Assembly (NCBI GenBank): GCA_035541055.1 | Contig: DATKNZ010000297.1 | Location: forward strand, 46 to 64,045 | Direction of reading: 5' to 3' | From: Candidatus Acidiferrum sp. | Lineage (GTDB): Bacteria > Verrucomicrobiota > Verrucomicrobiia > Limisphaerales > UBA8199 | DNA length: 64,000 nucleotides | Shown: positions 18,387 through 28,787 of the stretch, in pieces | Layout of the letters: every line of letters begins with the position of its first letter | How positions within the stretch are numbered: the stretch's first letter is position 1 | Notes under the pieces: generated by a model | Told to the model about the DNA's origin: nothing | Database searches by the model: none | The model's input: the letters and a program-made list of their open reading frames with translations, nothing else | Translations under genes and position numbers: made by a program

Positions 18387-18498
18387 AAATTGAGACGGTT
18401 AACGCCTGTGCGGCTTGACCAGGGACCTGGCTACGGCTATACAGATTGAACAATGGCCGTGTTCGAATGGTTTCGAGCAGGCCTTGAGAGCAAACAGG

Positions 18499-18543
18499 TT
18501 GGAGAGATGGCCGAGTGGCTGAAGGCGGCGGTTTGCTAAACCG
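18499..18543 (+). repeat. attL: displaced 5' half of tRNA-Ser(GCT) (acceptor stem to anticodon stem)
   Basis: 45/45 identity to 28693-28737 (ttggagagatggccgagtggctgaaggcggcggtttgctaaaccg). The sequences diverge immediately afterwards. Confidence 0.9.
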
Positions 18544-23602: not shown

Positions 23603-23803
23603 TCAATCATCGCGATATGGCTCCCGGTATTGCCGTGCCTGGGGCTGCTCTGCCTTGTGCCCGCCGGCGCACTGGTCACAAACAATGAGCCGCGCCAAGT
23701 GTGCGGCGGCTTCCCGGTCGCAGTCAGGCGTGAGGGGCAAAGCCATTGCCTTCCCGCATTTCGGGCAACGCACCTCGATAGTGGTGGGTATTGGCTCGCT
23801 CAC
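23603..23803 (-). CDS. Zinc-ribbon protein
   Basis: CPKCG ... CDQC (two CxxC pairs). 66 aa, GTG start. Confidence 0.5.
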   Translation of the reverse strand: MSEPIPTTIEVRCPKCGKAMALPLTPDCDREAAAHLARLIVCDQCAGGHKAEQPQARQYREPYRDD

Positions 23804-23824
23804 GGTGTCAGTGGGTGGGCCTTA

Positions 23825-23912
23825 GTGCCAGTGCCATATCTAAAGGTATATGGCACTTCTGGCACTAGGCCCTTGGCACCAGTGCCAAAACCAGATTTGG
23901 CACTTATGGCAC
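23825..23912. promoter_or_regulatory. Iteron cluster: eight perfect TGGCAC/GTGCCA hexamers, candidate replication origin
   Basis: GTGCCA at 23825, 23831 and 23882. TGGCAC at 23851, 23860, 23874, 23898 and 23907. Degenerate copies follow to about 23925. An AT-rich spacer catatctaaaggtatatg sits between inverted pairs. The cluster lies between the replicase stop (23955) and the next gene start (23803). Confidence 0.6.
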
Positions 23913-23954
23913 TTATGACACTTGGCCCATATTCATTGCCTAGAACGCGCGTTT

Positions 23955-25424
23955 TCATTTTGGGACTTGGCGTATTATCGGCTGCCATTTGTCGTTCGCT
24001 TTCGACTGGAGCACGCGGCCCGCGGTTTCCAATGACCTTTTCAGCCGGTAGAACGTGCTGCGGCTTATGCCCTCGGTCGCGGCTGCCTCCTGCCAAGCGG
24101 TTGTTATGAGCCCTCCGGGCGGCAGTATCGCCAGCAACTCGCCTTCGGTGTGTTCCCGCTTGCGCCCGCCTGCCTGCTTTAACTTGGACGGGTCAAGGCT
24201 ATCGTCGGCAACCATGAGCGGGTACGTCCAGCGGACAACAAAGGGCGGCGCGGGCGGGAAGTCGCGGAGCGTGGCCTCGACCGTAAAGGCGTCCTGCTCC
24301 TCGTGCCTGGTGAAGACAAGCAAGCTGTCGGGGTCTCGGGCGAATACGCCGGATCCCGAAATCCGGTCAATGCTCTCCTTGGTGGCTTGGTTGCCCTTGG
24401 AGAAATGAGCCCCGAAAGCGACAGCAGCGCCGCTCTCAACGGCCAAGTCTTCAACGGCGTTTAAGAGGGCGGCAACGTCGCCGGCCTTGTTTTCGTCCGT
24501 ATGGCCATAGAGCTTGTATATGGGGTCAAGAATGACTAGGGCGAAGTCCTGCTTAATGGCATCGGCAATCTGCGGCAGTAGCAGGTTGAAGTTGGCGGCC
24601 TTGCCCCTGAGGTTTGAAAGGACCAAGCGCCCGGGCTCAATCTCGATTGCCTTGGCGGCGGCAACGGCGTTCAAGCGCGACTGCCAGGACCAATCTTGAA
24701 TCTCGAAATTGCAGTAAAGCACTCGGCCCGCGGCGGTATCGCGGCCAAGCCATTGCCGGCCATGTGATACGCTCAGCGCCACGTCTAAGAGCGTCCATGT
24801 CTTGAAGCTTTTGCTGCCGCCTCCTAACACCAGCTTGGAGCCGCAGTGAAGCATCCCGGCGATAAGCTCCGGCGGCTTTGGTATGGGCGCTGCGGAGAAT
24901 ACGCTAGCGTCCACCATTGCGAGGGCGGCCCGCTGCGGTGAGTAAGCCGTGGCCATGCGTCGGGCGGCATCCTGGACAACGGCCCGCGGAATTGCCGTGT
25001 CTTCCGCCTTGGTTATAAGGTCCAGGGCATCCTGGATGACCGCGCGGCGGACTCGGGCGCTTTCTATCGCGTCCAGGAAGGCGGGAAAGTTGGCTGCCGA
25101 TGGTGTCTTGTCAGGCAGTGCGGCCACGTACTCGAGCCCGCCCGCCTCGCCGCCCTGGTGCTTGTCGCGCAGCCATTGGTGAAGGCTGACAACGTCCAGG
25201 GCCTTGCCGTCTATCCTCAGGCAGCGCAATCCGCGGAATGCGGCCTGGTGCCTCAGGTCGTAGAAGTGTTCAAGCTGCAACTGGTCGAGGCAGGTTTCCG
25301 CCTCGCCATTGGCGGCCCTCAGGACGCAACCAAGGGCGCCGGCTTCGGCGTCGGTGTCATGCGGCGGCAAGCGGTCAAGGCTTGGCGCCGGGGTCGGCAG
25401 ATATTCGCTGGCGTCATTGGCCAT
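23955..25424 (-). CDS. Replicative protein: DnaB N-terminal-like domain + RepA/AAA_25-like RecA-fold ATPase + C-terminal wHTH
   Basis: LPPHDTDAEAGALGCVL...FYDLRHQAAF...LDVVSLHQWL (DnaB-N pattern). Walker-A-like GGGSKSFKT and Walker-B-like FALVILDPIY. C-terminal ISRSTFYRLKRSLE. The ATG at 25424 is preceded by GGAGG. Confidence 0.7.
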   Translation of the reverse strand: MANDASEYLPTPAPSLDRLPPHDTDAEAGALGCVLRAANGEAETCLDQLQLEHFYDLRHQAAFRGLRCLRIDGKALDVVSLHQWLRDKHQGGEAGGLEYVAALPDKTPSAANFPAFLDAIESARVRRAVIQDALDLITKAEDTAIPRAVVQDAARRMATAYSPQRAALAMVDASVFSAAPIPKPPELIAGMLHCGSKLVLGGGSKSFKTWTLLDVALSVSHGRQWLGRDTAAGRVLYCNFEIQDWSWQSRLNAVAAAKAIEIEPGRLVLSNLRGKAANFNLLLPQIADAIKQDFALVILDPIYKLYGHTDENKAGDVAALLNAVEDLAVESGAAVAFGAHFSKGNQATKESIDRISGSGVFARDPDSLLVFTRHEEQDAFTVEATLRDFPPAPPFVVRWTYPLMVADDSLDPSKLKQAGGRKREHTEGELLAILPPGGLITTAWQEAAATEGISRSTFYRLKRSLETAGRVLQSKANDKWQPIIRQVPK

Positions 25425-25590: not shown

Positions 25591-25815
25591 TTAGGCTGTG
25601 ATTGCTACGCGACGGCGCGCAATCCACCCGTCAATGTCCACGCGCCGGTAACGGATTACCTTGGACGTTATGCGAATGAACGGAAGCCCGCGCGAGTGTC
25701 GCCACAAGCGCAAGGTGCGGGGTTCAACCGATAACAGCGCGGCGGCCTGGGTGTCGGTTAGAAGTTCGCTGGCGGGTTTCACTTCCGCCGGCGGCGTCGG
25801 CAAATCTTGTCTCAT
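25591..25815 (-). CDS. AlpA/excisionase-type HTH DNA-binding protein
   Basis: LLTDTQAAALLSVEPRTLRLWRHSRGLPFIRITSKVIRYRRVDIDGWI is the typical HTH_17/Xis pattern. Confidence 0.75.
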   Translation of the reverse strand: MRQDLPTPPAEVKPASELLTDTQAAALLSVEPRTLRLWRHSRGLPFIRITSKVIRYRRVDIDGWIARRRVAITA

Positions 25816-25879: not shown

Positions 25880-26617
25880 TTATCGGGAAGCGGGCTTTTG
25901 CGCCGCGCGCGGCTTGGCGACGTAGCCAGCGGCTTTTAGGTCTGCGGCGGCAGCGGCAGCGGCGCGCTCCATATACGGGCTTGGGTTAGGCGGTCGCTGG
26001 CGTTGCGCTGGCGCTTTCGCCGCCTTCGTTGCGAATGGCGCGGGCGCGGTTTCAAACCACAGTCGGCGGCCTTGGCGGTCTCGAAAATGCAGGTTGCCGT
26101 CAACCTCTAGCGCGGAAATTCTGCCGCGCTTAAACGGCTTCAAAAGCAGCCGCTCGCGCTCTTTCGTTACTGCGGCCTCTGTCAAACGCGTTTGGCGCAG
26201 TCGGTTTCGACACACATCAAGCAAGCCAGACGGGCGCAAAAGGCACAGCTCTGGCAAGTTGTCTTTCTGTTCGGCCCAATGGTCCAGCAAAAACTTTTCA
26301 AGTGCAGTAGCTTGCAGAGCGTTTGGCTTTCCGGTTAAGGCCCTTCCTAGCCGCCGGAAAAACTCAAGGTCATTTCTGTCCAGGGCGGCCAATACCTGCG
26401 CGCGAGTGTGCGCGTCGGTTAGGGTGTGGTTGCACTTCGCAGCCGCCAGCGCGCAATCCTGCTCGAAATCAGGGAGCGGGTACTGCGTCGCGTTGCGCTG
26501 GTGTAGCTTAGTAAAGCCGGCGCGCCTTAGTGCCAGGGCCGTCCACGCGCGGCGAACGGACGCGACAATTGCGGCGCGCTCTGCCGGTGTCATGGGCTTT
26601 TCGAGTGTGTTACGCAT
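25880..26617 (-). CDS. Hypothetical protein
   Basis: ORF with coding-like composition. ATG at 26617 (8-nt overlap with the ligase stop) or at 26593. No motif recognised. Confidence 0.45.
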   Translation of the reverse strand: MRNTLEKPMTPAERAAIVASVRRAWTALALRRAGFTKLHQRNATQYPLPDFEQDCALAAAKCNHTLTDAHTRAQVLAALDRNDLEFFRRLGRALTGKPNALQATALEKFLLDHWAEQKDNLPELCLLRPSGLLDVCRNRLRQTRLTEAAVTKERERLLLKPFKRGRISALEVDGNLHFRDRQGRRLWFETAPAPFATKAAKAPAQRQRPPNPSPYMERAAAAAAADLKAAGYVAKPRAAQKPASR

Positions 26618-27317
26618 ACGCTTTGCAATCGGTTGCGGGTTTATCGGTGCGGACTCTGACAAGGCGCGCTTCCCTGAATTTGCCGCTCGCGTGCCGGCCA
26701 AGGGCGGAAATCTCTAGCACGTCGCCAAGCCGGATCCCGTCAAAGGCGGCGCGGCATGGCAGCCAGCCGCAATCTTCGCCGGCCAGGGCAAGCCGAATTG
26801 AGCCGCGCGCCATGTCCCGCTCTGCGGCGACGCAATCAAAGGTTTCGACGCGTTTCGCCTTAAACCATTGGCAGCCGTAGGGCGCGGAAAGCCGTTTCGC
26901 AACGCAGCCTTCAGCGCCAGCACGCAATACGGCTTGCAAGTAGTCGCCGCCGGGCTGTCCAGGGCGCGCCGCCGGAATGGGCCTTATCCAGTCAGGGAAA
27001 AGCGGTTGCAACGCCAGCAAGGCAGCTCTGCGCTCGCGTAGGGGCTGCCGTCGCAAGTCTTGGCCGTTGGCTTCCAACAGGTCAAAGGCGAAGTAGGCTT
27101 TGCCGACAAGCTCACCGTCCAGCGCGCAGCCGTCCAGCGTCGCCGGCAGCGGTCCCGGCAGTGGGTAGCGCAGGGCGCGGCCTCGCAATTCGCCAGCCGA
27201 GAGCAAGGCGCGCTTGCCGTCCGCCTTGGTTTCAAAAGTCCAGTCTGGCGATGCCTGCCAGCGCAAGGCGTCTGCCAGGGCGACGGGCTGCGGCGCGGGA
27301 AAGTCTTTGAAGCTCAC
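26610..27317 (-). CDS. Minimal ATP-dependent DNA ligase (about 235 aa)
   Basis: Motif I ETKADGKR, III LDGELV, IIIa FAFDLL, IV EGCVAKR, V WFKAKR, VI-like REARLVRVRTDK. The GTG at 27317 overlaps the integrase TGA (GTGA). Confidence 0.8.
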   Translation of the reverse strand: MSFKDFPAPQPVALADALRWQASPDWTFETKADGKRALLSAGELRGRALRYPLPGPLPATLDGCALDGELVGKAYFAFDLLEANGQDLRRQPLRERRAALLALQPLFPDWIRPIPAARPGQPGGDYLQAVLRAGAEGCVAKRLSAPYGCQWFKAKRVETFDCVAAERDMARGSIRLALAGEDCGWLPCRAAFDGIRLGDVLEISALGRHASGKFREARLVRVRTDKPATDCKAYA

Positions 27318-28600
27318 TGCGCGGCCTCCGTTTTCAGGGCGACTACGTTTTCCGGCTGCTCTGGCGCAACGGCAAACCAAGCTATTGCGGCCTCGGGCTT
27401 CACAAGCTCGCGGTAGTGGCGGAAAACCACGGCGGGCGAGTTTCCGGCTTCAAGCGCAACCTGAGCGGCGTTTTGAATTGCGGCCAGCCGGTAGCTAATG
27501 AATGAATGGCGAAGCCCGTTGTCCTTCCAGGGCGTTGCGGCAGCCTTCACCGTTTCGGCGCGCACGTCTCGCAGGTCATTGTCCGTGCGCTTCCAGACTT
27601 TGCCCTTTTGATTGGCGTAGCTTGCGAGCCATGCGGCCAGGTTTGGCAGGATTGGCACAAGCCGCCGGCTGCGAGTCTTGGCCTTTTCGCCCGAGACGTG
27701 AATAAAGCCGCCAGACAGGTCTATGTCCTTCCATTCCAGCCGCTCAATTTCAGCCGTCCGCAAGCCGGCGAAAGCGCCAAGGGCCACAACCGGCAGAAAC
27801 TCCATTGACGCGGCCTTGAGCAAGTCGGCAATTTCCTTTGGGGTGTAAATCTCGATTGCGCCGCCGTTGGCTGTAATGTGTTCCACGTCCTCAACCGGAT
27901 TGCCGCCCTTGAAGATGTAGCCGCGCGACTCGGCAAAGTTAAATAGGGTGCCAAGCAGGGTGCGGAAATTCTTGGCCGTCTGCGGCGCGACTTTCAGGCC
28001 GTCAATCCAGCGTTGCACGTCCGCCGTTGTCACGCTGGAAATGTCCACGGCGTAATCTTTGGCAAATCGGCTCAGCCGGGCGGACAGGTCGCCAAGGTAG
28101 CGGGCGGACTTGCCGCGCGCGCGCTTGGCCTCAATAAGCTCGGTCACAACCTCAGGCACGCCGCGCGGCGTTACGCTGTCCGCGCCGTGCCGCTTGAAAA
28201 AGGTTGCGGCTTCAATCATCCGATCGCCGCCGAGTATTTCAACGCACTTGGCGACTGTGCCGGCGGCAACCTCCAAAGCCATGCCGGGCGGCAGCAATTC
28301 AACGGCGCGGCCATAGCTGGCAGCCTGGGCGTTTGTCATGCTGGCGGCGGTGGTCTGGCCGGTGCTTATTTGCCCGGCCAGCCTTTCGGCCAGGGCCAGG
28401 GCTTTAGCGTGCTTCGTGGTATCGTGGAAGCTGCGCTTGCCGGTGGTGTAATCCTCAACCTGAAAAACAGTGTAGTCCTTTTCGGCTGTGCTGCCGTCCC
28501 TTCGTTTGCTCTTGATGGTCTTTTGGCGGCGGTATATCTTCACCGCTACGTTGCCGATTTTGACAATTTCAGGTTTCCGGCCCTTGCGCTTAGTTGTCAT
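27314..28600 (-). CDS. int: Tyrosine recombinase / phage-type integrase
   Basis: GLRTAEIERLEWKDIDL, GLRHSFISY, AVVFRHYRELV (catalytic Tyr context). N-terminal SAM-like/arm-binding region. The ATG at 28600 is preferred because the longer ORF would abut the tRNA. Confidence 0.9.
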   Translation of the reverse strand: MTTKRKGRKPEIVKIGNVAVKIYRRQKTIKSKRRDGSTAEKDYTVFQVEDYTTGKRSFHDTTKHAKALALAERLAGQISTGQTTAASMTNAQAASYGRAVELLPPGMALEVAAGTVAKCVEILGGDRMIEAATFFKRHGADSVTPRGVPEVVTELIEAKRARGKSARYLGDLSARLSRFAKDYAVDISSVTTADVQRWIDGLKVAPQTAKNFRTLLGTLFNFAESRGYIFKGGNPVEDVEHITANGGAIEIYTPKEIADLLKAASMEFLPVVALGAFAGLRTAEIERLEWKDIDLSGGFIHVSGEKAKTRSRRLVPILPNLAAWLASYANQKGKVWKRTDNDLRDVRAETVKAAATPWKDNGLRHSFISYRLAAIQNAAQVALEAGNSPAVVFRHYRELVKPEAAIAWFAVAPEQPENVVALKTEAAQ

Positions 28601-28694
28601 GCTGTTAAATGTCGCAAATATGTCGGAAAATGTCAACAGCGGATTGAAAATATTTTCGGCAACCTGCAAACCAGTCAATGTTTGCAAGGGGTTT

Positions 28695-28787
<93 letters not shown>

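Follow-up and report, generated by a model that had tools for sequence, protein, structure and literature searches.

The window analysed here, a stretch of 64,000 nucleotides, carries a 10.2-kb int-alpA-rep island at tRNA-Ser(GCT), and the hexamer array that is the subject of this work lies within this island. All recognised genes of the island are on the minus strand, in the order integrase, mini-ligase, a 273-amino acid ORF, alpA, rep, the array and then approximately 10 small ORFs without family matches. The features of the island, in window coordinates, are as follows.

18490-18543, plus strand: attL, the duplicated 5' half of tRNA-Ser(GCT), a direct repeat with 28684-28737
23955-25424, minus strand: rep, with a DnaB N-domain, an AAA_25/RepA-like RecA-fold ATPase and a C-terminal winged helix (Pfam)
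23979-24146, minus strand: region coding for the C-terminal winged helix, residues 427-482 (AF2 order H-H-H-E-E, pLDDT >90)
25591-25815, minus strand: AlpA/Xis-like HTH_17 gene (PF12728, 1.6e-10; phrog_66, excisionase and regulator)
26610-27380, minus strand: ligase-like ORF of ~235-256 amino acids that overlaps the integrase stop (PF01068, 2.2e-8; NHEJ ligase domain, 4.9e-18)
27314-28687, minus strand: tyrosine integrase (PF00589; phrog_1, 7.7e-31)
28684-28787, plus strand: attR repeat and the intact tRNA-Ser(GCT) (28695-28787)

At the level of the whole element we found the features by which PICIs are recognised, namely int, alpA, unidirectional transcription, a pri/rep-ori unit, a length of ~10-15 kb and a specific att site. 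The match of the ligase-like ORF is limited to the core of an ATP-dependent DNA ligase, and a homologue of this ORF occupies the equivalent position in one related element (L013). The 66-amino acid ORF that adjoins the array encodes a Zn-ribbon. The element has duplicated the 5' half of the tRNA gene, from which int is transcribed divergently. More usually, elements of this kind integrate at the 3' end of a tRNA gene.

The Rep protein is 489 amino acids long when read from Met29, in a reading frame that is open to 25508, and matched the DnaB N-domain (PF00772, 5.6e-17) and AAA_25 (PF13481, 3e-28) in Pfam. When a profile of the Rep family was compared with the PDB, it matched DnaB via the N-domain (5e-26) and RSF1010 RepA via the ATPase core (1g8y, 4e-6). 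The best Foldseek match of an AF2 model of Rep (pLDDT 86.8) was also DnaB (1.8e-18), along the length of the protein. Rep is a homologue of the DnaB-like hexameric helicases with an extra winged helix at its C-terminus, and the AF2-based prediction of the recognition helix of this domain is SRSTFYRLKRSLE. The original prediction had likened the locus to SaPI/PICI-type elements, and in helicase class this likeness fails. The Reps of the three SaPI prototypes are SF3 or MCM-like (SF6) helicases, whereas Rep, by its best sequence and structure matches, has a DnaB/RepA-like RecA fold (SF4) together with a DnaB N-domain.

More than 1800 homologues of Rep were found. The N-termini joined to the ATPase and winged-helix core vary among them and include DnaB_N, Toprim_2, Toprim_4, VirE_N/PriCT and Prim-Pol domains; judged from these domain combinations, such interchangeable N-termini fit a module that may prime or recruit a primase. 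No close full-length relative was found in plasmid and phage databases. The P-loop of Rep, GGGSKSFKT (24780-24806, residues ~199-209 of the 489-amino acid form), is non-canonical, with Phe before Lys-Thr, and is invariant in 25 aligned homologues; a Walker A motif normally has Gly at this place.

The original prediction described eight perfect TGGCAC/GTGCCA hexamers next to the replicase gene. On re-reading the sequence, all eight positions were correct: GTGCCA occurs at 23825, 23831 and 23882, and TGGCAC at 23851, 23860, 23874, 23898 and 23907, so that the eight copies fall within 88 bp (23825-23912). The degenerate copy TGACAC (23916-23921), the 7-2-7 palindrome and the A/T-rich spacer that it named are also present, and the array does lie in the intergenic gap that separates the start of the 66-amino acid ORF (GTG at 23803) from the helicase stop codon (23955-23957, minus strand). 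The rep stop is ~26 bp from the start of the array and ~33 bp from the degenerate copy. The parts of the array are as follows.

23817-23928, minus strand: candidate ori, the iteron array and its outer palindrome, in the intergenic gap after rep (from sequence reading and counts)
23898-23921, minus strand: rep-proximal direct repeats spaced by 9 bp, TGGCAC at 23898 and 23907 and the degenerate TGACAC at 23916
23873-23888, no strand assigned: perfect 7-2-7 palindrome TTGGCAC-CA-GTGCCAA, a divergent iteron pair, TTGGCACCAGTGCCAA
23851-23865, minus strand: arm of the core dyad on the rep side, iterons 23851 and 23860, 9 bp start to start
23836-23851, minus strand: dyad centre ATATCTAAAGGTATAT, which contains the conserved CTTTAG in rep sense (CTAAAG on the plus strand, 23840-23845)
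23825-23836, minus strand: arm of the core dyad far from rep, abutting iterons 23825 and 23831, inverted relative to 23851 and 23860

Read along the minus strand, the rep stop is followed by three direct repeats 9 bp apart (the first degenerate), the 7-2-7 palindrome and a 2+2 block. The latter consists of two iterons, a 14-bp spacer (79% A/T) and two inverted iterons, and it is enclosed by an outer GGGCCT/AGGCCC palindrome.

To gauge how unusual this clustering is, we counted the hexamer in the window and in the genome. The whole window has 32 copies of TGGCAC/GTGCCA on both strands, compared with 47.7 +/- 6.5 in dinucleotide shuffles. The word is thus rarer than expected, and a quarter of its copies in the window are packed into 88 bp. 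The clustering claimed in the original prediction held up genome-wide: at the rate of 0.48 per kb found across the whole 6.8-Mb assembly, taken as background, lambda is 0.042 per 88 bp and the Poisson probability of at least eight copies is 2.4e-16. Only three places in the assembly have at least four of the hexamers per 100 bp. These are the window array, a site on contig C484 and a site upstream of dnaK. A 19/22 near-copy of the array edge (GGCGCGCCTTAGTGCCAGGGCC) lies at 26519-26540 within the 273-amino acid ORF. We considered this as a second cis site like crr of P4 and dropped it because, by our estimate, 13.5 kb of sequence would contain approximately one match of this quality by chance.

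Several known types of site were compared with the array. Origins of the pPS10/R6K/RK2 type combine DnaA boxes with direct iterons of 17-22 bp, and their Rep initiator is a separate winged-helix dimer. We rejected a classical iteron plasmid origin of this kind for the array, where the iterons are 6-7 bp long, no DnaA box was found in or near the array and the initiator is fused to the helicase. A sigma-54 promoter (TGGCAC-N5-TTGCW, with GG at -24 and GC at -12) was also rejected; none of the eight TGGCAC copies has TTGC at the required spacing. Scans of the array region for an intrinsic terminator and for a sigma-70-like promoter found neither.

To determine whether the array is conserved in homologous elements, we assembled a comparison set of 80 genome loci, mostly from Verrucomicrobiota (Limisphaerales and others) with some from Planctomycetota and distant ones from Firmicutes/Bacteroidota, and 80 viral contigs. 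At least five copies of one hexamer within 250 bp after the rep stop were present in 45% of the 55 usable genome loci versus 1.3% of 1566 control windows taken from those genome loci themselves. The array therefore recurs 3' of rep in related elements, but no more than approximately half of them have a clear one there. Hexamer arrays after rep also occurred in viral contigs of 35-60 kb. Relatives share the gene order of the int-(alpA)-rep module: an integrase precedes rep in at least 12 of them, and AlpA does so in 4. The genes beyond the array vary among the relatives and the array stays locked to the rep stop.

This pattern bears on the idea that the array is an operator or promoter that controls transcription of the downstream genes, from the 66-amino acid Zn-ribbon ORF onward, and is bound by Rep or by another regulator of the element. 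Only 22 bp separate the last iteron from the GTG at 23803, inverted repeats are typical of operators and, in SaPIs, the rep-distal intergenic region also has a promoter. We nonetheless consider this explanation unlikely. The downstream genes are not conserved and the position of the array relative to rep is, eight or nine sites with direct repeats and the least stable duplex of the island exceed what an operator needs, and the sigma-70-like promoter was missing from a scan that is perhaps unsuited to this phylum. A promoter or operator role may coexist with a role as an origin.

The iteron words differ among the elements. TGGCAC is used in the window, at C484 and in two further loci (L004 and L007), and other words include TGGCAG, TGAGAC, CGGACT, GGACAT and GGGACT, as well as TGGCGG, GACAGT, GACACT, GACAGG and TGCAGT. 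The layout is colinear in spite of these different words, with direct repeats, an inverted pair and 2+2 inverted iterons around a conserved CTTTAG centre. A block of two to three direct iterons was also seen in relatives, and three of them (L004, L007 and L008) have an isolated inverted iteron at the position equivalent to the 7-2-7 palindrome. When six arrays were aligned, their iterons fell at the same positions, and the copies within an element all carried the substitution particular to it, while the centre was conserved. The concerted variants in these six were GTGCCA, CTGCCA, GTCTCA and GTCCCA, with T at position 2 and the final CA invariant.

Concerted change of this kind is to be expected if the hexamers co-evolve with a cognate binding protein. 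We compared iteron similarity with the identity of Rep domains at 22 loci by Mantel tests. Iteron similarity correlated with the identity of the C-terminal domain (r=0.43, p=0.0003) and this correlation persisted given the ATPase domain (partial r=0.38, p=0.0003), whereas the converse partial correlation did not persist (r=0.08, p=0.19). Iteron identity thus appears to track the winged-helix domain and not the ATPase. Mantel tests leave some shared ancestry in, and we regard this result as supportive, not decisive.

Repeat arrays can also be centromeres or binding sites for TerS, and the array might accordingly be read as a partition (centromere-like) or packaging (pac/cos) site of the element. 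No par gene and no terS, capsid or interference gene was recognised in the island with Pfam, PHROGs and NCBIfam, and a site of this kind leaves the co-variation of the array with Rep and its fixed position relative to rep without a reason. We consider a packaging or partition site to be extremely improbable.

The original prediction did not mention that the centre of the dyad is kept even where the iterons differ between elements. By nearest-neighbour energy, no other 16-mer of the 10.2-kb island forms a less stable duplex than the one at 23836-23851, which ranks first of ~10,100. We scanned for a core CTT(T|CTT)AG flanked by inverted arms matching at 7/8 positions or better. This core was found in rep sense at 23 of 53 related loci and in antisense at 1, compared with 2 of 1472 control windows, and it is typically embedded in CCTTTAGG or CCCTTTAGGG. 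In many relatives the centre is G/C-clamped (CCCCTTTAGGGG), and therefore a simple A/T-rich unwinding element is not universal. Going by the sequences of these centres, extrusion of a cruciform or hairpin, more than A/T richness, may be what they have in common. The dyad centre is thus a candidate for either an unwinding point or a cruciform loop. Because CTTTAG is common to Reps with different primase modules, it more probably reflects a structural requirement or reading by the conserved helicase core than a site at which a primase starts.

When folded as single-stranded DNA, the candidate ori gave -34.6 kcal/mol (z = -6.7). Strong fold potential raises the question of whether the region acts as a single-strand or RNA hairpin, that is, as a stabiliser in the 3' UTR of rep, a terminator or an ssi signal that is read in its hairpin form, such as has been proposed for the 100-nt stem-loop 3' of pRN1 orf904 (PMC4234260), which is a precedent. 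The core would suit this function in being loop-like, conserved, non-palindromic and in rep sense at a ratio of 23:1 in genome loci. However, the core is turned the other way (CTAAAG) in a viral sub-family, so this orientation bias may simply be inherited and was not counted as evidence of function. A T-tract terminator is missing, Rfam gave only sub-threshold miRNA-like chance matches, and the direct-repeat iterons outside the dyad are left unexplained by a hairpin. On balance, we think a function as a hairpin alone quite unlikely. A hairpin or cruciform may instead be part of the mechanism of an origin, in which case it is no rival to it.

The second cluster in the same genome (C484:19583-19672, equivalent to L001:9584-9673) has eight TGGCAC/GTGCCA copies laid out as in the window array, with 2+2 inverted copies around CCCCTTAAGGGG, then a pair, then three to four direct repeats. 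It directly follows a 382-amino acid AAA_25 gene in a different mobile element, which has a serine recombinase, a repressor and a 364-amino acid ORF upstream of rep. The Reps of the window and of C484 showed no significant similarity beyond their common Pfam family in BLASTP and hhalign. The best hhalign alignment between them, which is still weak and suggestive only, was at the C-terminal HTH. With one iteron word between them, two elements in the same cell could activate each other's replication or prove incompatible.

The third cluster, four hexamers upstream of dnaK (L002:7581-7619, C289), raises the possibility that the word belongs to a host transcription factor and that the array is a host-controlled switch or a titration site. 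Four palindromes of the form (C/T)TGTGCCA-N3-TGGCACA(G) occur in the host genome, in the dnaK region of C289 and at C59:600, C171:12008 and C358:19040, which is ~10 times the chance expectation for that spacing, and the word is common to two unrelated elements of the genome. The array differs from the host N3 palindrome in spacing and arrangement, and relatives use different words that track the C-terminal domain of their own Rep. Host operators at promoters genome-wide, which would have spoken against the original prediction, are not what we found: the word is under-represented across the genome, and its clusters lie at two rep genes and once at dnaK, with none at other promoters. We therefore view host factor sites as very improbable. 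The N3 palindrome in the divergent dnaK promoter region has two more hexamers adjoining it and may be the operator of a host regulator, perhaps one of heat shock.

These comparisons lead to what is known of SaPI and PICI origins. The origin in these elements lies immediately 3' of rep, has opposed sets of penta- or hexanucleotide iterons around an A/T-rich region and is bound by the C-terminal winged helix of Rep, and a rep-ori fragment replicates autonomously (PMC6092414; PMC7581432; bioRxiv 10.64898/2026.10.17.759575). Inverted iterons 15-17 bp apart have been proposed as melting points (bioRxiv 10.64898/2026.10.17.759575). PICIs of Gram-negative bacteria are transcribed in one direction, in the order int-alpA-...-pri/rep-ori (PMC6092414).

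The window array shares with the origins of SaPIbov1, SaPI1, SaPI5 and EcCICFT073 a site immediately 3' of the initiator gene (as also in the relatives), short penta- to heptanucleotide iterons in opposed sets (here the 2+2 block) around an A/T-rich middle, and a C-terminal winged helix, which is predicted in the present case. The island also resembles Gram-negative PICIs in its size of ~10 kb and its unidirectional int, alpA and pri/rep-ori. It differs from SaPIs and PICIs in phylum. The SaPI origin is ~300 bp with an A/T tract of ~80-100 bp at its centre, whereas the origin proposed here is ~110 bp and has in its place the 14-bp spacer with the conserved CTTTAG core. The original classification as a SaPI/PICI-type origin can thus be kept for position and iteron layout and not for the helicase, which is SF4 and not SF3/MCM. 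Compared with SaPIs and PICIs, what appears to be new is not the origin scheme, which is known, but the SF4 helicase, the compact origin and the conserved core.

Together, four independent comparative results, namely recurrence across the family, colinear and concerted change of the iterons, their co-variation with the winged helix and the least stable centre, support the iteron origin of the original prediction and appear to favour it over any rival. From sequence comparison, we put the probability that the array is the vegetative replication origin of this 10.2-kb integrative element at tRNA-Ser at roughly 0.75.

Other systems share parts of this arrangement. Satellite phage P4 is an integrative element of ~11 kb with int and alpA, and its alpha protein is a primase-helicase with a C-terminal domain that reads repeated octamers. 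Alpha resembles Rep as a helicase with a C-terminal domain for short repeats, predicted in the case of Rep (PMC6092414, discussion), but it is an SF3 helicase, and P4 has two separated cis regions (ori and crr), neither of them directly after the gene. Cch2 of SCCmec is also a candidate self-loading helicase, and the direct repeats bound by its C-terminal domain closely follow the gene that encodes it (PMC7581432); Cch2 differs in being of the D5/SF3 type with only three 5-nt iterons and with inverted repeats that are dispensable for binding. ORF904 of pRN1 (and phage BIP-1) is likewise a primase, helicase and winged-helix protein, and an essential long stem-loop, conserved in structure and not in sequence, lies right after its gene (PMC4234260), whereas its helicase is SF3, the element is archaeal and no short iterons have been identified.

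At site II of SV40 large T antigen and at the papillomavirus E1 site, 2+2 inverted half-sites nucleate head-to-head hexamers over a melting point. The array has the same four short half-sites in a 2+2 inverted arrangement, an analogy of a kind drawn before (PMC7581432), but T antigen and E1 are SF3 helicases of eukaryotic viruses with an N-terminal origin-binding domain. The ATPase core of Rep is homologous to RepA of the IncQ plasmid RSF1010, as noted above. RSF1010 has a separate iteron-binding initiator, RepC, together with 20-bp iterons and ssi hairpins for the RepB' primase; by contrast, the window Rep fuses predicted DNA recognition to the helicase, and its iterons are 6-7 bp.

If the array is an origin, we propose that the winged helix would read the 6-7-bp iteron (A)GTGCCA. 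Rep bound to the three direct repeats, the 7-2-7 pair and the 2+2 iterons would form one or two rings over the dyad, and the centre at 23836-23851 would melt or be extruded as a cruciform. The helicase would load itself without DnaA or a separate loader, and the DnaB N-domain would then recruit host DnaG, a step that is supported by relatives in which the N-domain is swapped for Toprim or AEP primase domains. Int and AlpA would excise the element before it replicates. The overall scheme would be the Rep-ori scheme of SaPIs and PICIs run by an SF4 helicase.

Bacterial DnaB-type helicases normally need an initiator and a loader (DnaA with DnaC, DnaI or DciA). To our knowledge, SF3 or MCM-like proteins account for every self-loading initiator-helicase studied to date, namely SaPI Rep, P4 alpha, SV40 T antigen and E1. 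More tentatively, and at slightly less than even odds, Rep may represent a large and undescribed family of SF4 helicases with a DnaB/RepA fold, encoded by phages and by small integrative elements, chiefly those of Verrucomicrobiota and Planctomycetota, which load themselves via the C-terminal winged helix at a compact post-gene origin with direct and 2+2 inverted iterons around a conserved CTTTAG dyad core and in which changes in the winged helix have repeatedly re-tuned iteron specificity. We found no description of AAA_25-winged-helix initiators with such origins in the literature searched.

The main interest lies in the co-variation of rep and ori across the family and in a possible self-loading DnaB-type helicase. 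If true, DnaB-type helicases would have a natural way onto DNA that needs no loader, and the Rep-ori scheme of SaPIs would gain a fourth helicase class. A helicase of the DnaB/RepA fold with its own origin-reading domain, together with a small origin definable from sequence, would offer a simple system for studying how a RecA-fold ring opens duplex and loads itself, and the many combinations of winged helix and iteron that occur in nature (TGGCAC, TGGCAG, TGAGAC, GGGACT, TGGCGG and others) would form a ready specificity series. In phyla that have received little study, the rep-ori module is a marker of replicative islands and phages, and it could seed vectors for Verrucomicrobiota.

The region after rep took other forms among the loci compared. 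Two loci (L056 and L057) have 11 perfect hexamer copies each. Distant relatives in Firmicutes and others (L060-L082) retain a related design in the 250 bp after the rep stop, where a G/C-rich hairpin comes after short inverted repeats around a CTATATATAG-type centre. A large sub-family of viral contigs (L103-L144), with Reps of ~680 amino acids, has a conserved block of ~200 bp after the rep stop in which TTTGAA/TGAACC repeats precede three successive palindromes, one of them centred on CTAAAG or CGTAG.
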